DNA of 64,000 nt. It comes from Mercenaria mercenaria. Its lineage: Eukaryota. The stretch lies in the NCBI RefSeq assembly GCF_021730395.1, contig NC_069372.1, positions 64,284,221-64,348,220 of the forward strand, given 5' to 3'. A model generated the notes under the pieces. That model was not told where the DNA came from. It saw nothing but the letters and a program-made list of their open reading frames with translations, and did not search any database. A program made the position numbers and the translations under genes. This document shows positions 4,101 through 48,177 of this stretch, piece after piece (the stretch's first letter is position 1; every line of letters starts with the position of its first letter).

Positions 4101-4639
4101 CTGAAAATAGAAATAAACTTGTTGTTTCTTGTAAAAGCGACTTGCAAGTATGACCTGCGTAGATCTATAAAGCAAATGACAAACACGTAGCTCAGCATAC
4201 TAATACACGCACAGGCATATCGTCATTTTTCGACAATAAAACTATTTAAAAAAAGAAATTCAATAAGTAAAATTTGAGGGCTGAGGATATGAGGTAAAAG
4301 ATAAAATGAAGATTCAAAGAGACTTTTTGAACACATTTAATGTTGAACTGATGTATACAGTACATTCTGCCTTAGCGTTCACCTACAGGTATTAATTAAG
4401 CAGCCACTTGCCTTAAGTAGCCAATCAATAAACTTCCCAAACTGACTTTTCTATTGATATAATTATGGGCAGCATCTTTCATCCTTGGCTGATACTACAA
4501 TACTGGAGCTTATTTCAAACTTTACCCTGCTAACTTTTTAAAATGAACTGGTCCATTCATTTTGTGCAGTACCAATTATTATTCCAAGGGGTGTTCACTG
4601 AAAAATTTATGACTGAATAGTACGGTGTTCCGTTGGGGC

Positions 4640-8363: not shown

Positions 8364-8985
8364 AACAAGGAGCTGCGTTCAATAAACGCTTGATGCCCCC
8401 GGTGGCATCCTTGTCGATAAAAATGAGGTCAAGGTCAAACTGAGGTCAGGTGATGTTTGACGATGAGGAATGGTCACAGGTTACATCTGTATTAGTATCA
8501 ATTCATTCTTGTAAGCAGTATTGATGCTAAACGAAACAGTCCCATTTGGTTAACCAAGAGATGGCCCATATAAAGCAACCTAAGTCCAAAATGAGGTCAA
8601 GGTCAAGGTCAAACTGAGGTCAGGTCATGTTTGACGATGAGGAATGGTCACAGGTTACATCTGTATTAGTATCAATTCATTCTTGTAAGCGGTATCGATG
8701 CTAGACGAAACGGTCCCATTTGGTTAACCAAGAGATGGCCCATATAAAGCAACTTAAGTCCAAAATGAGGTCAAGGTCAAGGTCAAACAGAGGTCAGGTG
8801 ATGTCTGAAGATTAGAAATGGTCACAGGTTACATCTGCATTAGTTTCAAGTCATTCTAGTTAGGGATATTGATGCTAGACGAAACGGTCCCATTTGGTTA
8901 ACCTCGTACGGACGGACGAACGAACGGACGGACGGACAGGACGATCACTATATGCCTTCCGCATCAGTAGATGCCGAGGGCATAA
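8364..8985 (+). mobile_element. Helitron/Helentron-like non-autonomous element carrying about 3 copies of a roughly 190-bp tandem unit, a (GGAC/GAAC)n microsatellite and a 3' GC hairpin (GATGCCGAGGGCAT) followed by AA
   Basis: The 5' region is aacaaggagctgcgttcaataaacgcttGATGCCcccggtGGCATC. Tandem units each start ..aaatgaggtcaaggtcaaggtcaaactgaggtcagg... ggacggacgaacgaacggacggacggac at 8910-8940. Terminal palindrome at 8969-8983. Confidence 0.5.
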
Positions 8986-18959: not shown

Positions 18960-20839
18960 CAGGGCGTCAAGTGCTTTTGGGAGTCAAAAATATAGGTAGG
19001 ATCCTGAAATATAGGTATTTGGGGGCCAGAAATATAGGATTATATAGGTTGCTTATAATGAAGAAAACAAGTCAGACAAGTGTTTTATCCTCCTCCACCA
19101 CCTACCAGCACTCTCTTGTATTAAACATAAAATCTACTTTTATGATTTTAAACAAATAACATTTTAACATATATCTTACTTTCATAATAAACTATTAATT
19201 CACCAACAGACAAAACTTTACCAATACTGGTACTCAAATCAGTTTAACAGGGAATTAGGCAAACCAAGCCATATTGCTAACAACATATATCAGTACATTG
19301 TTAATACAAGTATAAAATATTGTGTTGGGCCTGCATTTGTACATGAATGAAAAAGAAAACAATTATAATCAAACCATCCTCAGAACAAAATTACAACAGT
19401 TTCATACTTATGAATACCATGATCTCTGTAAACATGATAACACATGGAGTCCCTTGACCCAGGGTCCTATAATATTGTTACATTAGACCTTCTTGGATTT
19501 CTTGGCATCTGTTTCTTTATCTTCATTCTTTCTCTTGGATGAATGCTTTTCTGATGAAGGACTTGACTTGGAAGAAGAGGCAGCTTGCTTGTCTGGTTCA
19601 GATTTTGAAGTTCTTGTTGAAGCAGTGGCAGAGCTTTTGGAACTTGATATGGCTGATTCTTGTTTCTTTCCTTTGCTTGATGATTTAGAACTGCACTTAT
19701 CTAGTCTGTTAACCAGTAACTGTCTCTTTTGCTGCTCAACTTCCCTTTGGTTTTCATGTACCCTGTCCATTTCCTTTCATATACCCTCTATCTTTGATGT
19801 GGCTGTTGCTATCATCATTTGTGCTACAGAAGCACCTTTCATGTCACTACTTTCAACAGCTTTAGAAAACGTTTTGTTCCCATCTTTTAACAGTTCCTCT
19901 GCTACAGTCAACCTTGTCTGAATCTCCATTTCTTTTTTAAGCAGTGCTTTTTCTTTTTCAAGCATGGAGGAGGTCTTATTCTTCTCTTCTGTTGCAAGTT
20001 CTTCCAGTCTTTTCTTTTTAAGCCTTTCTTTCTCTCTCTCCTGTTTCTTTTTCTCTCTTTCTTCTTTTTCTGTCTCAATCCTCTGTTTATACTTGTTATG
20101 GGCCATTTTTGCTGCCAAAAGTATTTCACTGTTTAATGGTAATTTGTGAGGTTGCTCATCTATAGGATCACTGAACTTAACTATGTCCTTCACAGTTCTG
20201 ATGGCAGTAACAGTTTTCTCACCCAAGGCAACTCTGTCCTTAGTCACTACACTAGTGTTCACTGACAAACTTCTCTCAACCTCTGAATTTCCATGTGGTA
20301 ATACCAGAGCTTTCTTGACAAGTTGACGTAAAAATCTGTACTTGAGCTGCCCACTATCAAGCTTCTTCACAAACACTTGTCTCCAATAACGGTCAATTCT
20401 ATCTTCTTCTTTCAAATCATCTTCTGTTTGATATACCTTCCATTCATCCACAATATTAACAGTCATATTTTCATCAAAATGCATTTCCTATTCACATTTT
20501 CATACATGAAAGCTTTAAGAAATGGAAAATATTCCAACTGAAAAAAGAACTTCCATTACTTAAAGCTTTCCTAAAGCTGGGCTCGGCAGGGTCGCTACAC
20601 CTGAAAGGAATACAAATTTCAATGCCTAAAAGGTAAAAGCATATTTATAAACTCAATTATCATAGAATTACTTCTTTTTTAATGGTTTGAATGACCTTTG
20701 TATTCCTTGCTTACCACAAAATTTCCAGATTATAGGTATTTATAGGTATTTTGGCAAAATATAGGATTTTATAGGTTATTATAGGTAGAGGGCTAAAATA
20801 TAGGAAAATATAGGTAAATATAGGTAACTTGACGCCCTG
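18960..20839 (-). mobile_element. hAT-like DNA transposon (about 1.9 kb): 13-bp TIR CAGGGCGTCAAGT / ACTTGACGCCCTG, subterminal TATAGG(T) repeat clusters, flanked by direct repeat ACTTTG
   Basis: The TIRs were read directly at 18960-18972 and 20827-20839. ACTTTG sits immediately outside both termini (18954-18959 and 20840-20845). An Ac-type CAGGG terminus is typical of hAT elements. The internal ORF carries a hAT C-terminal dimerisation-like domain. Confidence 0.6.
19483..20484 (-). pseudogene. Transposase-derived ORF with a hAT C-terminal dimerisation-like region (..IDRYWRQVF..LVLPHGNSEVERSLSVNTSVVTKDRVALGEKTVTAIRTVKDIV..), K/E-rich coiled-coil tail and S/K-rich tail; interrupted by one in-frame TGA at 19777-19779
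   Basis: ORFs 19777-20484 and 19483-19770 are in the same frame, separated only by TGA plus two codons. The pattern resembles Pfam Dimer_Tnp_hAT (ER.FS....T..R..L). The N-terminal catalytic part is absent. Confidence 0.5.
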
Positions 20840-22647: not shown

Positions 22648-23028
22648 TTAGTCATCATCTTCATCATCATCATCTCTGCGTGCACGTTTTGACGGAACAA
22701 CCATTCCACCTCCTATGCCTCCAATCAAGCCTTGGGCTGTGCTGAACAAGTTTATAGGACTTGATCCATCGGTGATGACGGTTGATTTCATACCAAGAGC
22801 CTGCAGCATACGAACCTGAAGATCAGGGCCTGCGGTTGCGATGGCCTGGAGAGTACTTGCGCCAATAGCATCCACCATTTGTTTGAACTTAATGGTCTCA
22901 ATCTCAGAAGTTTCACGCGATTTGGCAAGTTCCATCTCGTTCTGCTCCTTGACAAATTTAAGCTCCGCCTCTCGAGCACTGGTCAACCTCTCAAGTTCAG
23001 ACTCCGCCTCAATCTTCATGGCTTGTGC
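22648..23028 (-). CDS. MVP: MVP exon 13, terminal ([15 protein letters not shown]...[31 protein letters not shown]), stop TAA at 22650-22648
   Basis: ORF 22648-23019 (minus). Acceptor ttttgtag at 23030-23029. Matches the human C-terminus [47 protein letters not shown]. Antisense AATAAA signals (plus-strand tttatt) at 22573-22578 and 22430-22435. Confidence 0.85.
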
Positions 23029-23410
23029 CTACAAAATAATAACCATGAAAATAAAAATATCAAACCAGGACCTACAATTTTCATAAAGATTTTCTAGAAA
23101 GGTTTTTTTTGTGAACACTAAAATTCAAACTTTTGCAAAATATAATATCTCACTGATGTATTTGACTTTTGAAGTCTGTTATCTCCAAGTTCAAAAATAG
23201 TTCTCCAAAACGTTGAGCTACCGAGTTATGTCTGTATAACAATTACAAATGTTACCAGGAAAGTTTGATTTATTTAACGACACAAGAAATTACTTTAACT
23301 CTACAATTCTTTCTTCTTAACTTTACTCTTCACTAACAACAAAACTACAACTAAACTGCTAGTAATAAAACCTTCAGCTCGTTTCAGTCAGTTTGAAGTG
23401 TGCTGCCTAC

Positions 23411-23630
23411 CTTCAATTTAGCCTGCTCAACGGCTGCCTCTCCCTCAATCCTCGAGGCCTCGGCACGAGACTGAGCCTCTGCCTTCGCTTGACCAGTGGA
23501 CTCTACAGCTGCACTGTGTGCCTGTAACTCCAGCAGGTCCTTACGAGCCTTCTCAGCTTCAGCCTCGTCACTGATTTTCTGACGTTCAAGACGTCCCTTA
23601 GCCTCCTGTTCTAGACGTTCAGCTTCATGT
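23411..23630 (-). CDS. MVP: MVP exon 12 ([73 protein letters not shown])
   Basis: ORF 23384-23707 (minus). Acceptor cacag at 23632-23631, donor GTAGGC at 23410. Matches the human cap-helix region [73 protein letters not shown]. Confidence 0.85.
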
Positions 23631-23989
23631 CTGTGTGAGAAATATTCAAAGGTTAATTGTAAATCTCCAACAGCATATGGATATAAATAGAGTTGAAATA
23701 ACAACAATGCAACACAATTATATCTTTAAAATGACACACTAATGTTGCATGAGACTCACCATAAACACTGACAAATAATTAAGCATGTCTACACTTTTGT
23801 GGTTGCCTCGTTCCACAAAATTAATTACCAACAAATAAAATTCCCATTCATTTTATCTACAAAACTTGAAATTCAATCACTTATATCCTACAAAAAAAAA
23901 TGTTTTAAGCGAAATAATGAAATTTCATGTCCACACAATTAGAAGATTTCACAGTAACCTTTAACAAACTAGAATGTGTCTGTAGGACA

Positions 23990-25213
23990 CAGGGTGTGCC
24001 CCCCCCCCCCCACTGGTACATTTGTCACAAATAAGGGGCAATAATTCAAATGTTTGCAGTCTCAGTTTGAGGGTATAGCCTCAACAAACACTTTATGAAA
24101 AGGAGAAAAGGATTCATTATTCTAGGCCATATACTTTTTGAGCTATGAGCAAAACAAACAAAAAATCCACTATTTTGGCTATTTCAAGGGCCATAACTCT
24201 GTAATAAAAGCTAAGATTCTCAAGAAGAATGGTAAGTGTGCAAAGTCACATCACGATAAAGACTCCAGCAAGGTTTCCTGAATTTACATCTAATACTTTT
24301 TGAGCTAGGCAAATAATTAGGTAAAAAAGTGCATAATTAGGTGAAAATGTGCATTTTTTTGCTATTTCAGGGGCGATAACTTTAAAAATAGGGGGTGGAG
24401 CCAGCCAAAAAATTAGAGGAGTGCAAGTTTATATCATGATTAAGATTTATGCAAGTTTTCAACTATTTATACTAAATACTTTTTGAGCTAGGTGCGTCAC
24501 AAGGTGAAAATGTACATTTTTGACTATTTCAGGGGCCATAACTCTAAAAATAGGGGGTGGACCCAAATGAAAAATAGGAGGTGTGCAAGTTCATATCATG
24601 ATTAAGACTAATGCAAGGTTTCATGAATTTATATCAAATACTTTATGAGCTAGGCATATCACAAGGTGAAAATGTGCATTTTTGACTATTTCAGGGGCAA
24701 TAACTCTGAAAATAGGGGGCGGAGTCAGATGAAAAATAGAAGGTGCGCACGTTCATATCATGATTAAGACTCTTGCAAGGTTTCATGAATCTATATCAAA
24801 TACTTCTTGAGCTAGGCGTGTCACAAGGTAAAAATGTGCATTTTTGACTATTTCAGGGGCCATAACTCTGAAAATAGGGGGCAGAGCCAGATGAAAACTA
24901 GGAGGTGCGCAAGTTCACATCATGATTAAGATTCATGCAGGTTTCATGAATCTATATCAAATACTTTTTGAGCTAGTGTGTCACAAGGTAAAAATGTCAT
25001 TTTTGACTATTTCAGGGTCATAACTCTGAAAATAGGGGCGGAGCCAGACGAAAAATAGAGGTGCGCAAGTTCATATCATGATAAAGACTCATGCAAGGTT
25101 TCATCAATTTATATCAAATATTTTTCGAGCTAGGCGCGTCACGAACTTCGGACGGACGCACAGACAAGACCAAATCTATATGCCCCCACCACTCATGGGG
25201 GGGGGGGCACAAA
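23990..25213 (+). mobile_element. Helentron-like element with about 6 copies of a roughly 160-bp tandem unit, bounded by poly-C (24001-24012) and poly-G (25196-25206) runs; (GGAC)-type tract and TATGCCCCC..GGGGGGCAC hairpin at the 3' end
   Basis: Tandem units are recognisable by ..tttttgagctagg..gtgaaaatgtgcatttttgactatttcaggggccataactct.. at about 24300, 24478, 24636, 24797, 24962 and 25120. Lies in the MVP intron between exons 11 and 12. Confidence 0.5.
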
Positions 25214-25317
25214 AATGGTTTGTAACTGTATGAACTTTACTAAAGCAAGATTGATTAAACCAAGTACTAATGTTACTTAAGATGCCAAATTAAGCAGATG
25301 AAAGATTGACAAATCTG

Positions 25318-25583
25318 TTTGTTTTGGGTTTAACGCCATTTTTCAATTGTATTTTAGTTATGTTAACCTAACAAGTGTTCCTGGATTCTGTACCAGTACA
25401 AACCTGTTCTCCACAAGTAACTGCCAACTTCCCCACATAAATCAGAGGTGGAAGATGAATGATTTCGGACACATTATCTTCTATCAAATTGTCATGGAGA
25501 ACATACGCCTCGCCCGGGGATTGAACTCACGACCCCGCGATCCGTAGATCTGCGCTCTCCCTACTGAGCTCAGTGGGCGGGCC
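25318..25583 (-). mobile_element. tRNA-derived SINE copy (about 266 bp) with TSD AATCTG
   Basis: The minus-strand 5' head is GGCCCGCCCACTGAGCTCAGTAGGGAGAGCGCAGATCTACGGATCGCGGGGTCGTGAGTTCAATCCCC, carrying tRNA A- and B-box-like motifs. The 3' tail is ..CGTTAAACCCAAAACAAA. AATCTG flanks at 25312-25317 and 25584-25589. It lies in the MVP intron between exons 11 and 12. Confidence 0.6.
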
Positions 25584-25621
25584 AATCTGGGTTTCTGCCA
25601 TGATCCAATTGAACTGTATAC

Positions 25622-25833
25622 CTTGCAGCAGCCTCCTGCGAGTTGGTGGTGATTTCTATAGCGAGCTGGACAGATTTCTGTAGTGAATCACGTGTACGCT
25701 GGTCCACTGGCTCTACTGACTGGATGTCTATGCTTGTGACGTACAAGTTGTTCTGTTTGAAAACAAACACATCTCGGACCTTGTCTTTCTCATCAAAACC
25801 AAACACGGATGACCTGATTACCCTTGCGGAATT
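25622..25833 (-). CDS. MVP: MVP exon 11 ([70 protein letters not shown]+R)
   Basis: ORF 25570-25923 (minus). Acceptor tttacag at 25836-25834, donor GTATAC at 25621. Matches human [51 protein letters not shown]. Confidence 0.85.
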
Positions 25834-26584
25834 CTGTAAATACATGAAATTAATGTGTAACAAATGCTTAGGAACAATGATTTTCAAAAAACATTGCTTA
25901 CAAAGAACCTTCTTATACAACACACATAAAAGAGCTTAGTCTAGGAACCAAGTCTCAAATTTCAAAGTTCCCTTTGTTTTAGGCAAATTAAAACTCAATC
26001 AAGCCAAACAACACTAATTAGTGATGTGTTTAATGCAATAAAACACTTTCCATGTTTTCCAGGGCTGTTTAGAATTAAAGTTCTAACAAAATGTGATAAA
26101 AAATTAAATACATGTTATATCAAGTTGAAATTTGGTACGCTGTTTTTACGCTAATTTTAATTCCCTACCCTATCCTTTCTACAACAGTTATATCAAAGTT
26201 GGCTTGATAAGAGTAAAGCTACAGTTATTTTTTTTTACTTTCTACTTTAAAGCCTTCTGAAAAGCCCTTCAATTGATGACCTTACTGAAAAGAGCTCCAA
26301 ATACTTAATTAACATATAATCATTCTTTAGTATGAAGTTATGATTTCAACCAATAAGGTAATTCTTGATATATATACGAGGTAGCTATTCTTTACTTGCA
26401 TGTATGTGTGTATGTTGTAAATATCTTTACTTGACAATAACCTGCTTAAATTGTCAGGTGAATGGTAGGTAAATCTACATGATAATAACTTCAGACTTTG
26501 GTTTTACACCTTTGTACGTTCATGCACAGCTATAGTGTGTGGATAATTTGAAACGTTTTGAATTCTGACACCACAATGAAATAA

Positions 26585-27215
26585 ACAGGAGCACCGCCTA
26601 TGGGTGCCATCGCTCGTCTGCAACTGCTGGACAATATGTAAGAAAAGAGTTATAGCTCAGATTTTCTAAGTACAAAAAGGGCCATAATTCTGACAAAATG
26701 CAGGTTAGAGTTATGGTTCTTGACCTACATTGTCCCCCTAATGATGATAAACAAGTGTGCAAAGTTTCAAAGCTGTAGCTCTTATAGTTTTTGAGAAACG
26801 GTGACATAAACAAAAAATTTAACTAATAAACTCAAATTTTCTAAGTACAAAAAGGGCCATAATTCTGACAAAATGCATATCAGAATTATGGGTCTTGGCC
26901 TACATAGTCCCCTAACAATGATAAACAAGTGTGCAAAGTTTCAAAGCTGTAGCTCTTACAGTTTTTGAGAAAAGGTGGACCTAAACAAAAATTTCCACCA
27001 AGAATCTCAAATTTTCTAAGTACAAAAAGAGCCATAATTCTGACAAAATGCATATCAGAGTTATGGTTCTTGGCCTAATGATGGTAAACAAGTGAGCAAA
27101 GTTTCAAAGCTGTAGCTCTTACAGTGTTTGAGAAAAGGTTGACCTAAACAAAAATTCTAACCAACGCCGCCGCCGATCAAGTGACGACAATACCTCGTAG
27201 ATTGTTTTCAAAAAT
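26585..27215. repeat. Tandem array, about 3 units of roughly 190 bp (..ttttctaagtacaaaaagggccataattctgacaaaatgca..), with GCACCgcctatGGGTGC hairpin at the left edge and a (GCC)3 tract at the right edge
   Basis: Direct repetition read at about 26640, 26830 and 27015. Lies in the MVP intron between exons 10' and 11. Confidence 0.5.
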
Positions 27216-28018
27216 CAGACGAGCTGAAATTGTAATCCTGTATGTATGCAAACCAGAAAAAATATGAAACAGCAATCTATCAAGTATCATTTAGCACAAA
27301 GGATGGCAGGTGTGTATACCAGGTTTGGAATAGGTCAAGAGATAGCTGGGGTCGGAACCTGTATAGTTCTAAGCCCTTTACTGTTTATCTGACTACACTA
27401 TGCATTGTCTAAAAACTGGGAGCTCCAGTAGCTCTGCCTTTAATACAGAAACTTTAAATGTTCCTACTGCTCAAATGGAATGCAAGGATAACAATTAAGA
27501 AAACCCTATGTGTAAAACTTAATTTACCAGGAATTTACTCAATATGGACAGATTATGCTGTAACTTCTATTACTTAGAATCTGGTTAGTGGCAAATCAAA
27601 GAAGAGATTTAACATATATCATGCAGGTATGGTAGGGTCCACCACAAAATCACTGAATTATTGCTTTCAAGATATGAACTCTATTCATTCCAAATTCTCA
27701 TTGGATTTTAAAACAGAAACTTTAATTTTTGTCTATCAACATGAATTCTGAACATTATTTTTTTGTTTAATTCCTCTTAAAATTCAATCATTATTTAACT
27801 ACAATGTTTTCATTTTTCTATTAAAACAAAACTTTGCAAACTGACAATATGTGAATCGATAGTTTCAAACTTTGTCCCCTAGTAATGAATAAGGACAATG
27901 CCAGCATATCAAGGAAAAATGTTTTTTTCTCTACTGTATCTTTTCTAGCCACAATCCAATGGCAAGCAAAACGGTTAGGACAATTATAGAATTCACACTC
28001 ATGTAACAGAAACTATAC

Positions 28019-28163
28019 CTTATGGAAATCATCAAATGCAACTTGAGCCACTGCCCCTCTAACTCTAGAGGCAATAGCTTTACATGCATCGCCAATAAAA
28101 TCGGGAACGCTGAATAGTTTAGCAGCATCTTCGCCATCAGTCTTACTTTCTACTCCAAAATGC
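28019..28163 (-). CDS. MVP: MVP alternative exon 10', downstream copy of the same 145-nt exon ([48 protein letters not shown]); probably mutually exclusive with 28211-28355
   Basis: Hand translation in the MVP frame. Acceptor attgcag at 28166-28164, donor GTATAG at 28018. Same length and phase as the neighbouring exon, and only 47 nt separate the two exons. Confidence 0.65.
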
Positions 28164-28210
28164 CTGCAATGTCAAAATGTTTTATAAACGTACATCAGTA
28201 ATAAACATAC

Positions 28211-28355
28211 CTTATGGAAATCGTCAAAAGCTACTTGTGCGACAGCACCTCTTACGCGAGAAGCTATGGCTTTACAAGCATCGCCTACGAAATCTGGAAC
28301 ACTGAAGAGTTTTGCTGACTCGGCGACATCATCTTTGTTTTTCACCTCAAAATGC
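28211..28355 (-). CDS. MVP: MVP exon 10, upstream copy of a tandem duplicated exon pair ([48 protein letters not shown])
   Basis: ORF 28172-28387 (minus). Acceptor ttttgcag at 28358-28356, donor GTATGT at 28210. Matches human [48 protein letters not shown]. 145 nt, begins with 1 nt and ends in phase 0. Confidence 0.8.
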
Positions 28356-29020
28356 CTGCAAAATGCTAAAATGTTATTTACACACACAAGGTGAAAGTGT
28401 TAAAGGTTAGATAGAAAAGGTGTTTGAAGGTGTTTTGGTTAAAAAATGTTAACACATGTACATGTTAGCGCATTTGAATCATTCAAACACTAGCAACTAA
28501 AACTGAAACTCCTGAGCCAAAACAAAAATCAAGCATATCTACAGTTACAACCAAGTACACTGTACACTGTCACGTGTGTAAAGATAAAAACTTAGCTGAA
28601 GAAAACTAATTTTCATAAAATCGTATCTCAGGTAATTTCCAGTAATATGTAATACTTAAATGTTTTTTTTCTTGAAAATACCTTATAATTACCAGTACAG
28701 TCAAACCTGTGCTACAGACCACCTCCAAATAAAGGGCACAACTATAAAACCTGCCCATAAAGGCCACTATTTACTTGTCCCATTTACTTGTTAACAGTGT
28801 ATATTTACCTGTGTAGATAGACCACCTGTCAAGAGCCCACTTTTTCCATTTCCCAAATATGGTCAATACAGACAGGTTTGACTACACCTTAAACAACTTA
28901 TAATTTTCCTGTATAACATTATATGTAGTTAATTTTCAAATTTCTGCCATTAAGAAACAAGATATTGAAAAAACATAAAAATTAAGTTTTGTTTACATTT
29001 AGCCTACTGTATATACTTAC

Positions 29021-29218
29021 CAGTTATAAGATAATTGCAATGAAAGCCTGGCGTGGTCCGATGTTTCAACTACAATAATATCGGTACAGAAGTCTGGTCC
29101 GAGAAGGAGACACAGAGATTTGATTACATTAGGTTTCTTCGGTTTACCACCTGACAAGCTGAGCTGAGTAAACTGTTCATCAGGGCCAAGCATAACCAAT
29201 TCTGGACCAAATACAACT
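29021..29218 (-). CDS. MVP: MVP exon 9 ([66 protein letters not shown])
   Basis: ORF 29017-29199 (minus). Acceptor tttcag at 29220-29219, consensus GTAAGT donor at 29020-29015. Matches human [66 protein letters not shown]. Confidence 0.85.
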
Positions 29219-29689
29219 CTGAAATTGAATTGGTTAATTGTTTAAAACAACATGCTCTGATTTACATTATTTCAATTTCCTAGGGCTAACGAAGTCCCTT
29301 TCTTAAAGGTAATCAGCCAAGTACAGTATTTTACTTTCATCCAATTCACTTTTAATAACAAGAGGGTCATGATGACCCAGAATCGCTCACATGAGTAATA
29401 TGAGCCACATATTTAAAATTGCAAACTGATGCTAAAATATTAGAAAGTAGGTCAGTAGGTCACATTCATGGTCACTGAGAGTCAGTTTTAAGACTGGTGT
29501 GAAAAACTGTACATGTCATCCAAAATTCAAGGCTGTATCTTAAAAAAACAAGAAAGTAGGTCAGTAGGTCAAGGTCACAGTCAAGTGACCCCTAATCACT
29601 TCCAGTCATCAGTTAATTATGATTAAGCACTCTAGGAAATATGATTTGATAATTTTTGAAGTATTTATTCCTATATAACTCATATAACA

Positions 29690-30560
29690 AGTGACCCCCA
29701 GGGCGGGGCCTCTTTTCACCCCAGGGGCATAATCTGAACAATCTTGTATGAGATCCACTAGGCAATGCTACATACCCAATATCAAAGGCCTAGGCTATGA
29801 ACTTTCAGACAAGAAGATTTTTTCCCCTATAGATATGTCTATGTTAAATTTGGGAACCCTAGGGCATGGCCTCTTTTCACCCCAGGGGCATAATTTGAAC
29901 ACTTTTGGTAGAGGAACACCAGGCAATGCAACATACCAAATATCAAAAGCCTATGCCATGCAGTTTCAGGCAAGAAGATTTTTAAAGTTTTTTCCTATAT
30001 AAGTCTATGTAAAACTTGAGACCCCCGGGGCAGGGCCTCTTTTCACCCCAGCGTTATAATTTGAACAATTTTGGTAGAGGACCATAAGGCAATGCTACAC
30101 ACCAAATATCAAAGGCCTAGGTCTTGTGGTTTTAGACAAGAAGATTTTTAAAGTTTTTTCCTATATAAGTCTATGTAAAACTTGTGACCCCCGGGGCAGG
30201 GCCTCTTTACACCCCAGGGGCACAATTTGAACAATCTTACTAGAGGACCATTAGATGATGTTACATGCCAAATATCAAGGCTCTACGCCTTGCGGTTTTG
30301 GACAAGAAGATTTTTAAAGTTTTTCCTTTCGGTTGCCATGGCAACCAGAGTTCTGCATGGAATTCAATTCTTTGAAAAATTTTGAAAGGGGGCAACCAAG
30401 GATCATTTCTGTGAAGTTTGGTTTAATTCTGCCCAGTGGTTTTCAAGAAGAAGATTTTTTTAGAAAATGTTGACGGACGGACGGACGACGCACGACGGAC
30501 ATTGAGCGGTCATAAAAACTCACTATGAGCCTTTGGCTCAGGTGAGCTAATAAACTGACT
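29690..30560 (+). mobile_element. Helentron-like element with about 4.5 copies of a roughly 160-bp unit (..ggggcctcttttcaccccaggggcataat..), (GACG/GGAC)n tract and terminal GAGCCtttGGCTC hairpin + aggtgagctaataaa
   Basis: Units at about 29700, 29865, 30025 and 30185. gacggacggacggacgacgcacgacggac at 30471-30500. Lies in the MVP intron between exons 8 and 9. The same terminal motif (gctcacc..ggtgagctaataaa) is seen at 1985-2030. Confidence 0.45.
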
Positions 30561-31662
30561 GTAATGTATGCTAAATGGATGTAAACCACACCTCACTGTA
30601 GGCTATATTTCAAACATAAACCTTTTAAAGTAAATCCCTCTATCTATCAGGCAGGCATAAATAAATCCTTTCAATGGATTAAGAAGATTACATTCTCAAA
30701 ATTTTGAGAAATCATCATACTGGTTGGGAACCATTTTCCGGACACATTTTCATATTTTGGCTCCATTATTCCCTAAAAATAATATTTGATATAAATGAAG
30801 CCCACACTACACAAACTTCAGCTCCTTCTGCATCCGATGTTGTAATCAGCATCGCGTTGTGACGTAAAACATGGGTTCTATGGGGCCTCAAATGGGGTCA
30901 CTAAAAGAAGTTATTTCCCCCGTAAGGTAAACCAGTATCCGGACAAATATTTTGACGGTATTTTGCTGTTAATTTGATATCAAAATAAGTAATTAAACTA
31001 TTTTTACACATTTCTTTATCATTCATCTCTTCAAAAATGCACACGAAACATAACCTGACGTTCAATAGCAGCTACGAAAGCAAACCGAAGTTGACAATAA
31101 AAATCTCGAATTTCGTCTAAGGCGGATTCTTGATAATTCCAACAGATATAGAATAAAATTAGTGCAAAAATTGACAGCCCTGCATTTTATGTAACTATTA
31201 CCGTGAAATTATAAGTAGCACATGTTATCAGCGGACAATCAATATGAAGTTTAATTATTTCTTCCCCACTTGGTACTTCGGCAAGTGTGAACTACTGCGC
31301 ATGCGCAATGCTATCTTCATGCCCCATTAAGACAGAAAGTTGTTTTGTAAACACAGGTGTGTTATCATAAAAAAAACTAACATAAAACAGTTTTGTAATA
31401 TAGTGGTTGGTTGTATACATGAAGAACAAACACCTAAATGATCTAGATGAAACAATAACAGGAATAACAACGAAATAAAGCGGATATTACATGTGTCCGG
31501 AAACTGGTCCTGTCCGGAAACTGGTTCCCAACCAGTATAGTGCAATGATTTTCACTAACCAATTATTCAGCTAACATAACTGAATTTGTTCCTTTATTCA
31601 TGAAAGAAATGAGTCTCCAGTAGTCTAACTGGTATTTAAAGTTATTCATTTATTTTTCCTAC

Positions 31663-31898
31663 CTTGCTTTCTTCTCCTTGTAATCATAGATCTGTACAGC
31701 AGCATTATGAGGTACCCTAAATGTGATCACACGTGTCTTGTCTCTTGCTTTCGCTGCCTCTGGGGTGCGTCGGTCACTACGATCGGCAAGAGGATCTTTT
31801 GCTGCCATGAGCAGATTCTCAACTGCTGGTGGTAATTCTTTTGACCATAGTTCTTCATCATGATTCAGCATATAAGTTTCACCTGTAACTGCCCTTAC
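31663..31898 (-). CDS. MVP: MVP exon 8 ([30 protein letters not shown]...[23 protein letters not shown]+R)
   Basis: ORF 31659-31871 (minus). Acceptor tttcag at 31900-31899, donor GTAGGA at 31662. Matches human [54 protein letters not shown]. Confidence 0.85.
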
Positions 31899-32252
31899 CT
31901 GAAATTATCAATGATAAAAACACTGCTCATGCCTTTCATTGGTTTTATTATGGATAACTGCGAACATTCTCCAACATATCAAGGATCCCTTAAAATGTAC
32001 CTCAATTATGGTTTCAAATATTTCTATGAAAGTTTATAATTTTCTAAACTAAAACAGCCACATAGAAAAACTGTATATATTTATGTATAACCACTGAAGA
32101 AAAAAATAATCACAGAGCTTTCTTATTTGCCCATGAAAATATCAATAAAAATCCTCATAAAATTAAAGGCCAAAGTAATAAAACTGGAGGTTAATCGTAA
32201 TGTTTAAAGTATGAATCCGTAGCTGAAACCAATGTTTGTATGTTAAACATAC

Positions 32253-32402
32253 CTTTCCAGTCTTGACATCACGGACATAGATTCCCTCATTCTCATCAAG
32301 GGGTATAGCCTGTCGTTTCATTACCACCTCAACCTCAACAGGGGGAACATATTCCTTAGGGCCTCGAATCATCCAGCGGTCTCCTGGCTTTCTGTCATCC
32401 TC
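32253..32402 (-). CDS. MVP: MVP exon 7 ([50 protein letters not shown])
   Basis: ORF 32163-32372 (minus). Acceptor ttaaag at 32408-32403, donor GTATGT at 32252. Matches human [44 protein letters not shown]. Confidence 0.85.
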
Positions 32403-32687
32403 CTTTAAGAAAGTTTTTTTTAAATAACTGATACATTGTAAATAAAAAATGAAAAGAACATTAAAAGCTTAAATGTTACTGGGAACTGAACTCAAAACCC
32501 TAAAATTACAACTACATTCATCTTTCCAAATTTTACTTTTTTTTTAAATCACTGAAACTTCCCATTTTCCTCTGTAACTTTAAAAGGACAAAAGTTTTAG
32601 ATTTTTTTTATTACCAAACATGTCATTGCCAAACAATGCAAAAAATATTTTATTGATTATATCAAAGATTTCTTTTTGTTTACTTAC

Positions 32688-32807
32688 ACCATCTTTAAAG
32701 CTCTCATTGGCCCGGAGAATCAGTCCCTCATCTTCACCGAGGATGTAGACGTTCTGTATACCTCTTTCTAGACGTTCCCCTGGCATCAAGAAAAATGTCT
32801 TCTCACC
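32688..32807 (-). CDS. MVP: MVP exon 6 (GEKTFFLMPGERLERGIQNVYILGEDEGLILRANESFKDG)
   Basis: ORF 32580-32789 (minus). Acceptor cag at 32810-32808, consensus GTAAGT donor at 32687-32682. Matches human [35 protein letters not shown]. Confidence 0.85.
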
Positions 32808-33300
32808 CTGTAATGGAAGAGTTACGTATGACAGACTATTTCAGTAACACTATCAGAAATAGCTTAACTTTGTTAAGCTTGTAAAAATAAACAAGAATAA
32901 ATGCATAATCCTAACTAAGTTTACACAGAGTTTTACATAATTAAACAAAAGTCACTTCAATAATTCATGTCTTTTAAATGATAATTTTCTTACAAACTTT
33001 TGAACAGTTTTAAGTATACTGTAGTGATTATTTTGTAAGGCTACAAGTTTGCAATTCTTAAATGAGGTAGAATATTCAAGACATTTACAATAATAACAGC
33101 ACATCATTTTTGTCTTATGAATAGTCAGCAAATTCAGCAAAACTAAGCCTCTTGCAAACATTTCTAATTTTACGCTATGTATGTAACAAGTTAAGATGAA
33201 AACTAAGAGATATCAGATAGGTTATTGATTAAATAAGGTCTTCTTCGTGTACTAGAGGTGAATTCCAAAATAAGTGTTGAGGAATATACATTAACAATAC

Positions 33301-33411
33301 CTTAACAAGCTTTTTCCTTCCCATTTGGGGTCTTCCCTTCTCATCGACAGGGTCCAGGACCACACAGTAATGTCTGTTACTGAGAGATGTTATGTTCACT
33401 ACTCCAACTAC
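33301..33411 (-). CDS. MVP: MVP exon 5 ([37 protein letters not shown])
   Basis: ORF 33229-33423 (minus). Acceptor cacag at 33413-33412, donor GTATTG at 33300. Matches human [36 protein letters not shown]. Confidence 0.85.
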
Positions 33412-33699
33412 CTGTGGTGACATTCAAATACAAATACACTTTCTGTCAAAACTTACAAGAAAATAAAAATAAAGAATACAAAGTACTGAAGATTTTGGGT
33501 TAATACTTGCAAATTTATAACATGCAAAAATATAGAATACAGTTAGCTATGCATTTTGAATTTTTTTCTCACAACGGTCATTTCAACGATGTATCCTCTT
33601 ACTGAGGGCTATTAAATAATTTGAAACTTGCTTTATAAAAAAAATTCTGATGCAAGATAAATGTCTTCCACATCTTTATGGTATTTTATCTATAGTGTT

Positions 33700-34395
33700 A
33701 GTCTAACCATCGTCAATAAGATTGCAATAGTTGTGAAACTAGAAAAGTGTCCATAGGACACAGATTTTTCCTAGGTCAGGGGCCATAACTCCTACAATAC
33801 TGAATGAATCCGGACGCGAAACCCCAGGTGCACAACTGCACATGCTGACCAACATTCCTGTAAACTTTGGTGACTCTAGGTCAAATACTTTTGGAGGTAC
33901 GCGCGACACAACATTACAATGACCAATTTTTAACTAAGTCAGGGGCCATAACTCCTACACGACTGAATGAATCCGGACGCAAAACCCCAGGTGCACAACT
34001 GCACATGCTGACCAACATTCCTGTAAACTTTGGTGACTCTAGGTCAAATACTTTTGGAGCTATGCGCGACACAACATTAAAATGACCAATTTTTTACTAA
34101 GTCTGGGGCCATAACTCCTACACGACTGAATGAATCCGGACGCAAGACCCCAGGTGCACAACTACACATGCTGACAAACATTCCTGTAAAGTTTTGTGAC
34201 TCTACATCAAATACTTTTGGAGCTAGGCGCGACACAACACTAAAATGACCAATTTTTACAAAGTCCCAGGTGCACAACTACACATGCTGACCAACATTCC
34301 TGTAAAGTTTTGTGACTCTACCTCAAATACTTTTGGAGCTAGGCGCGACACATCTTTATGCCCCCCCCCCCCCCAAAGTGGGGGCATAAAAATCA
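33700..34395 (+). mobile_element. Helentron-like element with about 3.5 copies of a roughly 163-bp unit and a 3' hairpin TATGCCCCC(C)n..GGGGGCATA followed by AAAA
   Basis: Units begin ggggccataactcctaca at 33781, 33943 and 34107. ctttatgccccccccccccccaaagtgggggcataaaaatc at 34354-34393. Lies in the MVP intron between exons 4 and 5. Confidence 0.5.
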
Positions 34396-34919
34396 GCAAA
34401 AGCCTGGCCATATAGCACAGCACAAATAACACTGTGGTAGGAAAACAATGTCTCAGCAATTTAACCCTGGCAAATAGTTTCTCAAAAACAAAATTTAAAC
34501 AAAGTAACGTATTTTCTCGAGAAAAACAAAATCTAAACTGAATGAACTTTATCATTGTATAATTGCTCACGGTGACCGGTAAATCATTTTTAATTCATGA
34601 CACAACTAATTTCTTTACTCTTTCATGTTTTACAAATACATATATAGTATAGGTATAAATATGATGGGTGTGGTAGCCATGATTTGAAGTTTAGTAGGGC
34701 ATGATTTTGTTTTGGACCGATCGAGTTTTCAAAATTTCTGAAGCCCTGACAATTAATATACTGAAATATATGACTAGCAATGTGTATAACTGCTTATAGC
34801 TTTTTATGTCATTACAAATGCATTCTCATAATGAATACAGTACGAACATTGTAATTCTGATCTACATAACATTCCTTATTAAAACATGATTTAATGTAAA
34901 CACATATGTATTAACTGAC

Positions 34920-35272
34920 CTCTTCATAGACATTTGGGATATGTGTTTCCGTCATATCCATGGTAATAAGCCACTCTTCACCATTTTTACGTGTTATTCC
35001 GAAATCGTCCTTGAAGGTTCTCAGTGACCTCATGTGCAATGCCTTCTTCTCTGTGAGAACGTAGGCATTTACAATGTCAACAACTTCTTCGTAAGCTCCT
35101 GGTAAATAGGCTCCAGTCTTCTTTACTTCCCATTCTTCACCAGTCACACGTGCATTACCCTCCCTGTCAATACATTCTTTACGTGCACGTAATCTGATAG
35201 CCTGGTTGGGTTTGATGATGGTGGCCCGCACCGTCTCTTCAACCACAACCTCTTTCCTTGGAATATAGGTAC
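34920..35272 (-). CDS. MVP: MVP exon 4 ([47 protein letters not shown]...THIPNVYEE)
   Basis: Six-frame ORF 34911-35399 (minus). Acceptor ctag at 35274-35273, donor GTCAGT at 34919. Matches the human MVP repeat-domain region [47 protein letters not shown]. Confidence 0.85.
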
Positions 35273-35329
35273 CTAGCAGAAAGACAATTTTGCTCATGTT
35301 ATTCATTACTATACAACTGAGAAAACTGG

Positions 35330-36590
35330 AGCTATCACTAAAGGTGATGAATGCACCCCCCGCATGCACTGACACAGTACACTGCAATTTGACGCACACA
35401 AGATTGCATAATTATGTGGACTGTATGAATATAGACTGTATGTATACTGTATATGCAGACTGTATGTACATAGTATGTTAACAAGAAACAAAGTCCCATA
35501 ACTCTGCAATTTTTTTTGTTGAAAGAACCTAACATGCCCTATGCATAACTACTGTTGTTACTGATCACTTGTGTGAAGTTTCATTCAGTTGTGTCAAGGG
35601 GATGAGGAGAGATGGTGCGCACAAGATTGTGTCTATGTATATAGTAAAGTAACAAAAAACAAAGTCCCGTAACTCTGCAATTTTTTTCTGAAAGAACCTA
35701 ACATACCCCATGCACAACTACTATTGTTACTGATCACTTGTGTGAAGTTTCATTAAATTGTGTCAAGGGGATGAGGAGAGATGGTGAGCACAAGATTGTG
35801 TCTATGTATATAGTAAAGTAACAAAAAACAAAGTCCCGTAACTCTGCAAATTTTTTTTCTGAAAGAATCTAACATGCCCCATGCACAACTACTGTTGTTA
35901 CTGATCATTTGTGTGAAGTTTCATTAAATTGTGTCAAGGGATGAGGAGAGATGGTGCGCACAAGATTGTGTCTATGTATATAGTATAGTAACAAAAAACA
36001 AAGTCCCGTAACTCTGCAATTTTTTTCTGAAAGAACCTAACATACCCCATGCACAACTACTGTTGTTACTGATCACTTGTGTGAAGTTTCATTAAATTGT
36101 GTCAAGGGGATGAGGAGAGATGGTGAGCACAAGATTGTGTCTATGTATATAGTAAAGTAACAAAAAACAAAGTCCCGTAACTCTGCAAATTTTTTTTCTG
36201 AAAGAACATAACATGCCCCATGCACAACTACTGTTGTTACTGATAACTTGTGTGAAGTTTCATTAAATTGTGTCAAGGGGATGGGGAGAGATGGTGCGCA
36301 CAAGATTGTGTCTATGTATATAGTATAGTAACAAAAAACAAAGTCCCGTAACTCCGCAATTTTTTTCTCTGAAAGAACCTAACATGCCCCATGCATAACT
36401 ACTGTTGTTACTGATCACTTGTGTGAAGTTTCATTAAATTGTGTGAAGGGGATGAGGAGAGATGGTGCGCACAAGATTGTGTCTACGGACAGACAGACAG
36501 ACAGACAGACGGACAGACAGACAGACAACCTGAAACCAGTATACCCCACCTTACAACTTTGTTGTCGGGGGGTACAAATATATCAACCTT
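35330..36590 (+). mobile_element. Helentron-like element with about 5 copies of a roughly 180-bp unit, a (GACA)n microsatellite (36487-36530) and a 3' hairpin GTACCCC..GGGGGGTAC
   Basis: Units share ..aacaaagtcccgtaactctgcaattttttt..ctgatcacttgtgtgaagtttcatt..gatgaggagagatggtg.. The 5' region (cacagtacactgcaatt..gcacacaagattgcataa) has a paralogue at 9040-9100. Lies in the MVP intron between exons 3 and 4. Confidence 0.5.
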
Positions 36591-36735
36591 AATTAAAGAA
36601 AACACGGGAAAAGTTGTTTTGCTAAATAGTGAATGGTTTAATTTTGAAATAATTCATTGTAAGGTGTACAATTGACTTTTACACATTTTCTGGTTTATTT
36701 TGTAAGTTTCTACCAATTGTATCTAAAGCTCATAC

Positions 36736-36859
36736 CTGGTCCCTCAAAAAGCCATTCATCCCCAGCTGTTCTCTTTTCTCCAGTATCATCTTCAAAATCT
36801 AATATTGCACGTAGTCTAAGGGCTGAATTAGGGGCCACAACTTTCAGAGGGGTTACAGC
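36736..36859 (-). CDS. MVP: MVP exon 3 ([42 protein letters not shown])
   Basis: Hand translation. Acceptor tag at 36862-36860, donor GTATGA at 36735. Matches human [41 protein letters not shown]. The phase links exons 2 and 4. Confidence 0.8.
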
Positions 36860-37364
36860 CTACAAATGAAACATATCGTAAAGTGTTTTTATGAACACCA
36901 TTTATACAACTCAAACAAAAAATGATCTCATGTGTGTAACAGTAACCTTGAAATAAAGTTAAAAGTTATCTAAAGGAGTCAAATAACACAAACAGCTATC
37001 ATAAAACAGGAAAACTCCCATCTGAAACCTTTCATTCGATGTTTAATTTCAATTAATCTTCCTCATATTCAAACCATACTGAATTGATTTTTCTTCCTAG
37101 GCCTTTAAAATCTTTGAAAGAGAGCTGTAACTTAAACTAAACACTGAAAGAGGAAAAAATTTCTTAAATTTTCCTGTTCGATTTTATTCTTCCTATTTCT
37201 CAACTTATTTTCTCTCTTTTTTTTTTTATAAGAAATCTAAAACCTAATAAACAGTAACGACTTACATCAGTGTGCATACCAACAAACATGCCATTAGAAA
37301 AAAAAACAGTCTACTTCCTGGACATAATATTATACTTTCATCTGAAACCAGTTAAGAAGTATAC

Positions 37365-37560
37365 CTGTTTAAGGACCTCCCCTGGGTAGAGTGGGAAAGG
37401 GTCCTGGGCAAGTCTAATCTCCTGGTCAGCATGGAGAAGCCGCACTTGACCACTCTTATCTATCACCACACTGTTGTCTTTGTCCCGCAGTGCTGGGTTC
37501 TCGATAACACAGTAATGCCTTGGTGGCACTGTTATCATCTTCTCTGGTCCAACGACCACT
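37365..37560 (-). CDS. MVP: MVP exon 2 (..[65 protein letters not shown])
   Basis: Six-frame ORF 37338-37559 (minus). Acceptor tttttcag at 37563-37561, donor GTATAC at 37364. Homologous to human [28 protein letters not shown]. Confidence 0.85.
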
Positions 37561-37960
37561 CTGAAAAATTCACAGATTTACAAGTTATTTTCTAGCTTTA
37601 AATATGTTCAGAATTAAATCGTCCTCTTGTTTCCTACCATAATCTCTGGAAGCCTAGTACAGTGCAATCTCTAAACATAATGTTATAACAGATCATTTTT
37701 GTTCAGTCCAAAGATTAAGCATAATTAGATTAGCACTGCTCAGGTACGTAGCCAAGCTAGAAATTATATTGATGCCCGATGAAGCCAGAGGGATCTGTGG
37801 GTCTGCTCCCGAGACAGTTTTATTTTCTACATTCAATTTTCTCTATTTTGGCAAGTAGTTTTAATAATATGAAATAAAGTTCATGTTGAAGCATGCGCTT
37901 CCATACTTCTGCCTAGCTATGCTAAATGTTTGGCTGATATTTAAAATATTGAAAATTTAC

Positions 37961-38094
37961 CTTTCATTGTCCTGTCTGATGTATGTCTGCGGACCAACTT
38001 CCAACCGTGTGACATTTTTGTTCTGGTCTAGAACATGAATGTAATAATACGGTGGAATTCGGAACAAAGATTCATTTTCTTTTCTAGTTGCCAT
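37961..38094 (-). CDS. MVP: Major vault protein, exon 1 (ATG at 38094-38092; [44 protein letters not shown]..)
   Basis: Translation of the minus strand matches the MVP N-terminus (human [42 protein letters not shown]). A GTAAAT donor follows ...AATGAAAG at 37961. Ends in phase 2. Confidence 0.85.
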
Positions 38095-46658: not shown

Positions 46659-48177
46659 CCATATTTGTATAGCACTCTTTTCATACAAAAGAATATACGT
46701 TCAAAAATGCTTAACAATAGAATGAACATACATGCACAATAGATAATTACAAAAATAAAACAATGATACGGATAAGATACGTGTTTAAAACATTAAATAA
46801 TAGTTAAAATTATTAAATGCTAAACACAGTTTACTACATGAAAGTCAAAACAATATCACACTTGCAATATATCTATGCATATGACTACGAATAACACAGT
46901 TTGTCTGGTTAAACACAAATTACATCTAAAACAGTTTACGCAGAAAACAACATTGAAGTGTTTAAAATACGATTCATAACGAGATTAAGAAAAGAATTTA
47001 GATTGATAAGCTGACAAATTCACAGTCGGACTATCACATGCATGTGCATGGTCACTGTCCATAGTATTTTACAAATAAATGTGTTTTTAACGATTTTTTG
47101 AATGATAAGAGTGTTCCATTGTTTCTTATGTCATTAGGTAGAGCATTCCACAGTCTTGGTGCAGCATGTCAGAAACTTCTGTCACCGTATTTTACAGTAC
47201 GTGATTTTTGCACAACAAGTAAATTTGAATTTTGTGATCTTAAATTTCTTGAAGGTCTGTATATATCAAGCATGTCCTTGATGTATTTAGGGGCATGATC
47301 TTGAAGAGCTTTATAGGTGTGGGTCAGGATCTTAAACTCCACCCTGTATGGTACAGGAATCCAGTGTAGTTCTTTAAGCACAGGTGTTATGTGCTCGTTA
47401 CGGCGTGTTCTCGTTATTATACGTGCAGCTGCATTTTGAACGTTCTGAAGTTTGTTTAAACAAGACCTCGGAATGCCATACAAAAAACCATTACAGTAAT
47501 CGAGACGTGAGGTAACCAGGGAGTTTACTAGCGACTTTGTGGCATTGGAGGTAATGTAGTCCCTTATATGTTGTATCTGACGCAACTGTATATAACAAGA
47601 TCGACATACGGCATTTATATGTTTTTCCATGTCCATTTTCGAATCAAGGATTGCGCCTAGATTTCTTACGCTGGATGACGGTGTTATGGTAGACTCGCCA
47701 ACTTTTACTGTAATGTTATCAGTGAGTTTTTCATTTTGTTTTGATGTGAAGACAATGACTTCGGTTTTTTCAGCATTCAGTTTCAGCATGTTTTTATTCA
47801 TCCAGGTGATTATTTCATTGAGACAATGTTCTACTCGTTGTAGGGATTCAATTCTAGTAACAGTCTCTGTTGGCTTAAATGACAGATATAATTGTCCATC
47901 ATCAGCATAGAAATGATAATTGAGCCCATGATTCTCACAAATTGCACCAACAGGTTTTGAGTACATGGTAAAGAACTTAGGTCCAAGGACTGAGCCCTGT
48001 GGCACACTATATTTCATCAAAACAGGGTTTGACACCTCTCCATCAATACAGACAGTTTGGTAGCGCTCGTCTAAATAAGACTTCACCCACTCAAGTGGTT
48101 TGCCTGCAATATCAAAATGATGTTCAAGGCTGTGCAACAGAGTCCCGTGATCAATGGTATCAAAGGCTGCTTTATGA
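46620..48177 (-). mobile_element. 5'-truncated non-LTR retrotransposon (LINE) fragment: C-terminal reverse-transcriptase region (YADDGQLY motif) plus a 3' (AAT)n tail, inserted into the long-TIR element
   Basis: ORF 47169-48137 (minus), 322 aa, with the RT palm motif FYADDGQL and downstream thumb-like sequence. (att)12 at 46621-46657 lies at the element's 3' end. The host element's sequence resumes at 48178. Confidence 0.65.
46621..46657. repeat. (ATT)12 microsatellite (the 3' tail of the minus-strand LINE fragment)
   Basis: Direct reading. Confidence 0.8.

Follow-up and report, generated by a model that had tools for sequence, protein, structure and literature searches.

Exons 2 and 3 of mammalian alpha-tropomyosin are reportedly a steric-hindrance pair, in which only a short spacing separates the two alternative exons. 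In C. elegans, the steric pairs let-2 exons 9/10 and egl-15 exons 5B/5A are separated by 30 nt and 14 nt, respectively; these spacings all fall under 40 nt, and the exons concerned are 3n in length (PMC4165533). Splicing in this species extends to introns as short as about 40 nt, only those below this length being regarded as unspliceable, and 14 of 19 non-3n exon clusters depend at least partly on NMD (PMC4165533). The steric criterion applied to human genes is a donor-to-branch-point distance of less than 50 nt; of the human mutually exclusive clusters, 60% are non-3n and only 9% satisfy this criterion (PMC5740500).

We analyzed a window of 64,000 nucleotides of Mercenaria mercenaria (the whole stretch from 64,284,221 to 64,348,220 of contig NC_069372.1), in which the gene for the major vault protein (MVP) contains two adjacent copies of its coding exon 10, here called A and B. 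These copies very probably constitute a mutually exclusive pair that arose by tandem duplication and gives rise to two isoforms of 859 residues. As in let-2, egl-15 and, as reported, alpha-tropomyosin, the two copies are set apart by an intron much shorter than the gene's others, and the predicted branch point lies near the upstream donor. Unlike the C. elegans cases, the clam intron is longer, at 47-50 nt, and the exons are 3n+1, so that NMD would provide a second safeguard. When the class criteria for homologous mutually exclusive exons (Pillmann et al. 2011; Hatje et al. 2017, PMC5740500) were applied, the clam exons resembled known tandem-duplication pairs in being neighboring, equal in length, of the same phase, homologous, free of stops, flanked by GT-AG introns and non-3n. 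They differ from the pairs in PMC5740500 in the kind of evidence at hand, as the studies there require junction-read validation, whereas the clam pair is represented by RefSeq models only. The MVP pair is anciently duplicated and selectively maintained, and is very probably of the ordinary mutually exclusive type. As tandem-duplicate exclusive exons are well understood and this pair is already in RefSeq, the basic finding is unsurprising; its value lies in vault biology, where an extremely conserved protein has nonetheless kept two versions of one hypervariable shoulder loop.

The MVP coding region occupies 22648..38094 of the window on the minus strand, as do all its exons, and forms a complete gene of 13 exon positions encoding 859 codons plus a stop, running from an ATG at 38094 to a stop codon at 22650-22648. 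Exons 1-8 are located at 38094-37961, 37560-37365, 36859-36736, 35272-34920, 33411-33301, 32807-32688, 32402-32253 and 31898-31663. Coding exon 9 (198 nt, 29021..29218) has the 3' end ..TAT AAC TG|gtaagt, while coding exon 11 (212 nt, 25622..25833) begins NSARVIRSS and supplies the acceptor shared by the donors of copies A and B; exons 12 and 13 follow at 23630-23411 and 23028-22648. All 13 introns are GT-AG, with boundaries fixed by rebuilding the CDS against proteins P0241 and P0242, and measure, in order, 400, 505, 1463, 1508, 493, 285, 354, 2444, 665, 47, 2185, 1991 and 382 nt. In a search with the full-length protein, the nearest homologues were those of heterodont bivalves (94% identity over 99% of the length), which carry the Pfam domains PF01505, PF17794-6 and PF11978 (Vault-repeat, MVP_shoulder), and residues 475-696 of the clam protein aligned to residues 479-710 of rat MVP, for which structures exist, with E = 3e-106. 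Judged by this similarity, the host gene of the duplicated exon is that of MVP.

Copy A (28211..28355, minus strand) and copy B (28019..28163, minus strand) are adjoining internal exons on the same strand between exons 9 and 11, and each consists of 145 nt, or 1 + 48 codons, which in copy A encode residues 542-589. The 47 nt between them (28164..28210, minus strand, GTATGT...TTGCAG) form an intron that is a candidate steric block and in which the acceptor region and predicted branch site of copy B lie. Both copies have an acceptor of the form ttgcag|G and a donor of the form AAG|gtat, with entry phase 2 and exit phase 0: exon 9 ends in AAC TG, either copy supplies with its first G the last base of the Trp541 codon, and the final codon is a complete Lys. 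The two Mercenaria copies, neither of which contains an in-frame stop, share 75% of their nucleotides (109/145) and 39 of 48 amino acids; the figure of 88% "mean column identity" for the pair is a measure separate from this pairwise identity. Of the N-terminal 11-residue patch, 8 residues differ between A and B (544, 546, 547, 549 and 551-554), and the C-terminal 34 codons differ in one residue (V/I).

Because 145 nt is not a multiple of three, either inclusion or skipping of both copies leads to a premature stop. Joining exons 9-A-B-11 reads ...FHKAFWSRK*, with the stop seven codons into copy B, and joining exon 9 directly to exon 11 reads ...SYN*, as the junction itself creates a TGA. From these translations, only an mRNA with exactly one copy of exon 10 encodes MVP. 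CDS rebuilding reproduced exactly the coordinates, lengths, strand, phase and 47-nt spacing reported in a preliminary description of this locus and bore out its statement that inclusion of both copies shifts the frame, since the A+B translation encounters a stop. Its account of a nearly identical C-terminal part with synonymous divergence, preceded by a differing 11-residue patch, also agrees with our counts (one V/I replacement, about 18 synonymous differences, and 8 of 11 residues).

Alternative use of the two copies is already modeled in RefSeq. The CDS rebuilt with copy A was identical to P0241, the Mercenaria mercenaria "major vault protein-like isoform X1" (XP_045173722.2 and others), and that rebuilt with copy B was identical to P0242, isoform X2 (XP_045173723.2). 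These two proteins, both of 859 residues, differ at nine positions alone (544, 546, 547, 549, 551-554 and 564). The RefSeq models in both Mercenaria and Ruditapes comprise single-inclusion isoforms only, with no other exon 10 combination. Alternative isoforms predicted by Gnomon are normally based on RNA-seq alignments. Our literature searches returned no paper that linked MVP to mutually exclusive exons or to Mercenaria, and a search on bivalve mutually exclusive exons likewise gave no relevant paper; the exon pair is present in RefSeq but without a description in the literature searched.

All six full-length Logan-assembly proteins (apparently from transcripts) in the three clusters closest to the clam MVP, which come from close relatives, were of the A type. 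B-type queries of 146 and 337 aa against a collection of 5.8 billion proteins gave no venerid match, the best matches, apparently limited to about the query length, having 88% and 84% identity. Copy A is probably the major isoform, and copy B may be a minor or condition-specific one. The uniformly A-type proteins, and the failure of searches of the protein collection to find a B-type transcript fragment, would also fit the idea of copy B as a relic (pseudo-exon) that is never used, with isoform X2 a computational by-product. This explanation is very unlikely, given that in two species copy B has the same length, a reading frame that is still open and canonical splice sites on both sides, and that the B isoform was modeled in both of them by independent RefSeq annotation runs; the comparison of B exons between these species, presented below, bears on it further.

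In Ruditapes philippinarum we found the same order of A, a 50-nt intron, and B, with the A-like exon at L002:13672-13816 and the B-like exon, whose peptide starts HFGIENKKDGVDAAK, at L002:13867-14011, both with canonical splice sites. Either Mercenaria exon peptide matched both Ruditapes copies in tblastn searches (E = 2e-23 to 4e-26), so that the likeness of the copies greatly exceeds chance, and the RefSeq isoforms X1 and X2 of this species are equal in length and differ only within residues 544-567. Nucleotide identity between the two clams was 0.82 for A against A and 0.81 for B against B, as compared with 0.72-0.77 for A against B. On these identities the copies are orthologous across the genera, A with A and B with B, and the duplication is therefore older than the split between Mercenaria and Ruditapes. 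Common to the B copies of both clams is the signature HFG[VI]E.K.DG.DAAK, with two new glycines; the B-specific residues G544, D/G 550-551 and DA 553-554 were kept in both species, a conservation that would not be expected of a relic. The preliminary description had proposed to search other bivalves for the same duplication, and Ruditapes supplies it, with intact splice sites and an X1/X2 pair.

The Ruditapes locus also bears on the possibility that the pair is an assembly artefact, in which two diverged alleles of a single exon were set in tandem. Beyond the general possibility of such errors in heterozygous bivalve genomes, nothing points toward this explanation, and it is exceedingly improbable: the same arrangement occurs in another genus, whose genome was assembled independently, each copy possesses its own acceptor and donor, and the Mercenaria copies differ at 25% of their nucleotides, with saturated synonymous sites.

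To quantify this divergence, synonymous and nonsynonymous differences were counted by the Nei-Gojobori method, and departure from neutrality was assessed with a binomial test. Between the Mercenaria copies A and B, we counted 24.5 synonymous differences over 31.5 sites and 11.5 nonsynonymous differences over 112.5 sites in the whole exon, and 18 over 23.2 and 2 over 78.8, respectively, in codons 15-48. By these counts the synonymous sites are saturated and the duplication is old. Synonymous differences between Mercenaria B and Ruditapes B numbered 21.5 overall and 17 in the constant part, as compared with 6.5 and 2 nonsynonymous ones (binomial P under neutrality of about 1e-9 to 3e-10). Both copies are under strong purifying selection, which in the case of B has continued since the species split.

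Purifying selection between the B copies excludes a decaying relic and argues against a further explanation, namely that copy B serves mainly as a "poison" exon that, when spliced in alongside A, brings a premature stop and so lowers MVP output through NMD, without production of a second protein. The stop found seven codons into B upon A+B inclusion is what such a role would call for. However, copy B has been conserved as amino acids in the MVP frame despite saturated synonymous change, which a poison exon does not need, and no A+B mRNA would arise at all should splicing of the 47-nt intron be impossible; we therefore regard a pure poison-exon role as highly improbable. The preferred reading remains that of two protein-coding alternatives. 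Taken together, the exact isoform matches, the reading frames, the orthology in Ruditapes and the signature of selection support, at the level of sequence, the mutually exclusive reading offered in the preliminary description, and the dN/dS check (saturation; P about 1e-9) agrees with its proposal of an old duplication with purifying selection on both copies.

A single copy of exon 10 was found in all seven outgroups, these being Mactra antiquata, Mya arenaria, Dreissena polymorpha, Potamilus streckersoni, Argopecten irradians, Solemya velum and the nemertean Tubulanus polymorphus, and the duplication is therefore specific to venerids. Identity to the single-copy Mactra and Mya exons at codon positions 1+2 was 0.96-0.97 for copy A and 0.88-0.89 for copy B, and the variable patch of copy A matches that of the Mactra and Mya exons. 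The duplication thus arose among venerids, later than their separation from Mactridae and Myida but earlier than the divergence of Mercenaria from Ruditapes. Copy A, the ancestral-like one, retained the original loop, and copy B, the derived variant, gained its distinct conserved signature.

Sequence immediately upstream of the exons gives an indication of how much DNA was duplicated. The last 21-24 nt or so before each acceptor are nearly invariant across the two clams, with the consensus TAACATTyTAGCATTTTGCAG before copy A and TAAAACATTTTGACwTTkCAG before copy B, and the intron farther upstream of copy A is not conserved. In the acceptor-proximal segment upstream of copy A (28356..28376, minus strand, taacattttagcattttgcag), Mercenaria and Ruditapes agree at 20 of 21 positions; this segment probably holds the branch point and polypyrimidine tract of copy A. 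Homology is evident between the two pre-acceptor segments, and neither Mactra nor Mya has the motif ahead of its single-copy exon; the acceptor region therefore belonged to the duplicated unit. That unit comprised about 192 nt, made up of about 25-47 nt from the 3' end of the upstream intron together with the exon.

Exclusivity of the two copies could be maintained at two levels. First, NMD would be expected to clear mRNAs with both copies or neither, as these contain a premature stop. Second, only some 16-30 nt would separate the donor of copy A from the branch point of copy B, the candidate sites being TACTGAT at 16 nt and an AAAAC element at about 30 nt, so that direct splicing of A to B is probably blocked sterically. 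Any branch point within the 47-nt or 50-nt intron must fall less than 50 nt from the donor, although this criterion is a human one and the bivalve minimum may differ. We infer from the sequence that A and B are never spliced together, that steric hindrance and NMD clearance account for this, and that vaults built from A and B may differ in function.

All other introns of the gene (285-2444 nt) exceed the inter-copy intron at least six-fold. The latter measures 47 nt in Mercenaria and 50 nt in Ruditapes and is about 74% identical between them, with a nearly identical 3' part, TAAAACATTTTGAC.TT.CAG. The other 12 MVP introns changed in length by up to about 9-fold between the two clams (for example 400 to ~3380, 1463 to ~416, 2444 to ~571 and 382 to ~2055 nt). 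That a short intron was conserved among introns that changed freely argues for selection on its shortness and lends indirect support to a steric block. It is plausible that 47 nt is too short for splicing in bivalves; a search of the literature on minimal intron size in molluscs gave no usable figure. On balance we consider a steric block likely to be the primary mechanism, albeit with limited confidence, and the frame-shift with NMD to be a certain back-stop at the protein level.

It is alternatively possible, though doubtful, that the pair is mutually exclusive without steric hindrance, either because the 47-nt intron is spliced and the double-inclusion mRNAs are then removed by NMD, or because trans-acting factors or competing RNA structures choose between the copies. 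The 145-nt length of the exon, which ensures a premature stop upon double inclusion or skipping, is compatible with such a mechanism, as are the C. elegans data described above, in which introns of about 40 nt are spliceable and most non-3n clusters rely partly on NMD (PMC4165533), and the small share of steric cases among the predominantly non-3n human clusters (PMC5740500). A comparable MVP exon pair in the nemertean Lineus longissimus, described below, has an intervening intron of 396 nt, and a short intron is therefore not required for an alternative pair at this MVP exon. On the other hand, the clam intron was held at 47/50 nt with about 74% identity while synonymous sites became saturated and other introns shifted in length. 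Furthermore, a scan for inverted repeats over some 1.4 kb surrounding the pair in either clam yielded short AT-rich matches only, none of them common to both, although weak or long-range structures may exist. We also considered assignment of the pair to the docking-site/selector subclass, in which RNA structures compete, and rejected it, as no complementary element common to both clams was found within this stretch.

We then located the exon within the vault protein. By alignment to the solved rat MVP, exon 10 corresponds to rat residues 546-593 or thereabouts. The MVP shoulder domain ends at residue 646, and His592, which takes part in lateral MVP-MVP contact (PMC13347060), corresponds to the FHK at the end of exon 10. 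The exon thus lies in the middle of the shoulder, an SPFH-like domain, about 50 residues before the cap-helix. The preliminary description had placed it at the junction of shoulder and cap-helix; the shoulder part of this assignment holds, whereas the junction does not, with the exon at rat residues ~546-593 and the shoulder running to 646.

A full-length AlphaFold model had a pLDDT of 58 and a pTM of 0.29, and only its local secondary structure in the shoulder (pLDDT 59-85) was used. The prediction places a strand at residues 532-543 (...SYNWHF), followed by a loop (544-550), a short turn (551-554) and helices at 562-579 and 584-589. In this model, eight of the nine isoform differences fall in the 11-residue loop 544-554, and V/I564 sits at the start of the long shoulder helix. 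Among 49 animal MVPs, residues 544-554 constituted the third most variable 11-residue window of the protein (2.11 bits, as compared with a mean of 0.62), exceeded by the C-terminal tail and the 437-447 loop only, while residues 555-589 were almost invariant (0.26 bits); the variable patch is thus embedded in the part of MVP that is conserved most. The positions that differ between A and B coincide with those that vary between species.

The same exon has been altered in other animals as well. Lineus longissimus has two MVP exon copies of 145 nt each (L004:4476-4620 and 5017-5161) with good splice sites and a 396-nt intron between them, and the RefSeq isoforms X1 and X2 of this nemertean differ at 15 residues, all of them inside this exon (548-588). 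The Lineus pair resembles the clam pair in involving the same 145-nt exon with the same phases, in its tandem arrangement and in having isoforms that differ only within the exon. It differs in the length of its intervening intron, to which the steric mechanism does not apply. Both Lineus copies carry Lineus-specific residues (GDSC) and share ASV with Tubulanus, and both venerid copies carry an AQVAF motif that is also found in the heterodonts Mactra and Mya. Because of these residues shared between copies, the AQVAF motif of the venerids, and the single-copy outgroups sampled between the two lineages, the Lineus duplication is taken to be independent of the venerid one.

Two further cases were considered as exon pairs of this kind and rejected. 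In the periwinkle Littorina saxatilis, the isoforms X4 and X5 differ by one residue, and this difference stems from an 86-nt tandem array of 7.2 copies with 98% identity (L008:25060-25680) that spans the acceptor along with 53 nt at the start of the exon, the part that codes for the loop; this partial-exon array is recent. In Dreissena polymorpha, two MVP forms differ at 42 positions across the protein, 8 of which lie at residues 548-555; they represent two genes, and the one that we examined (L006) has a single copy of the exon. Dreissena, and Mytilus likewise, are similar to the clams in possessing two co-existing MVP forms, which in Dreissena have differences concentrated in the same loop, and are dissimilar in that this diversity came about by gene duplication and not by exon duplication.

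The two versions kept by selection in venerids, the independent duplication in a nemertean and the partial amplification in a periwinkle mark the loop as functionally relevant and possibly facing a partner. The shoulder is reported to contact ER membranes in Dictyostelium, according to a citation in PMC13347060. We tentatively raise the reading, which we consider unlikely, that this loop is a hot-spot at which the vault shell diversifies. It would then serve in recognition or contact, with membranes or a lineage-specific partner for example, and lophotrochozoans would have multiplied it repeatedly along several genetic routes: exon duplication, long ago in venerids and separately in Lineus, the very recent seven-copy partial-exon array of Littorina, and the Dreissena gene paralogues with their differences concentrated there. 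If this were so, cells could build vaults with alternative or mosaic shoulder surfaces, which would offer a handle on vault function. The sample of such cases is small, and the loop is hypervariable in any event.

Finally, two protein fragments, P0002 and P0017, were at one point taken for the products of partly spliced transcripts, an interpretation that we dropped, as they are more likely open reading frames on genomic contigs of Myida-like species, in which the intron that follows the equivalent of exon 10 has been lost.

Tandem duplication of the 145-nt MVP exon was also found in the nemertean Lineus longissimus (OU342993.1), where two copies, at positions 4476-4620 and 5017-5161 of the Lineus MVP locus (L004), are separated by a 396-nt intron. 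The RefSeq MVP isoforms X1 and X2 of this species differ at 15 residues, all of which lie within the duplicated exon. A single copy of the exon was present in Tubulanus (L007). The duplication in Lineus is independent of that in Mercenaria.

A partial repetition of the homologous exon was observed in Littorina saxatilis (CM074567.1), as a tandem repeat with an 86-nt unit (7.2 copies, 98% identity) at positions 25060-25680 of its MVP locus (L008). Each unit consists of the final 33 nt of the upstream intron and the initial 53 nt of the exon, the latter encoding HFELGEK[S/N]DAVAAKLFS. The variable residue is N in copies 1 and 3 and S in all others, a difference that agrees with the RefSeq isoforms X4 and X5. 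One copy could be used as a 53-nt mini-exon joined to an internal AG of the last copy, with the reading frame kept.

Variation in the loop where the two clam exon copies diverge was also seen between MVP genes. Comparison of the proteins of the two MVP genes of Dreissena polymorpha (P0125 and P0250) shows 42 differences over 863 residues; eight of these form a consecutive run at residues 548-555, in this loop. Mytilus species also appear to have two MVP genes, represented by two gene clusters (P0131 and P0146) with differing loop sequences.

The intron 3' of the 145-nt exon is present in Mercenaria, Ruditapes, Mactra and Tubulanus. It is missing from Mya arenaria (L003:13917/13918) and D. polymorpha (L006:16049/16050), where FHK, the end of the exon 10 product, runs directly into NSARVI, the start of the exon 11 product; this probably represents an intron loss shared by the two within Myida.

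The window is rich in tandem arrays with units of ~145-175 nt (2-12 copies, 80-95% identity), probably bivalve repeats of a satellite or MITE-like type. Five sit within MVP introns (24339-25142, 26656-27164, 29652-30324, 33764-34265 and 35463-36485), and further arrays lie at 8426-8903, 59673-60568 and 62260-63998. Much of the difference in MVP intron length between Mercenaria and Ruditapes is due to these arrays.

The minus strand at 19486-20487, approximately 2 kb beyond the stop codon of the MVP gene, contains a 235-aa ORF (19777-20484) that is followed, after a single stop and without a change of frame, by another 97 aa of open frame. Lys, Glu and Ser are abundant in both, and a Pfam search of this sequence (E <= 0.01) returned no match. 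Upstream of the MVP gene, a 322-aa ORF (47169-48137, minus strand) matches the reverse-transcriptase domain PF00078 (E = 6e-13) and is probably a retroelement fragment.
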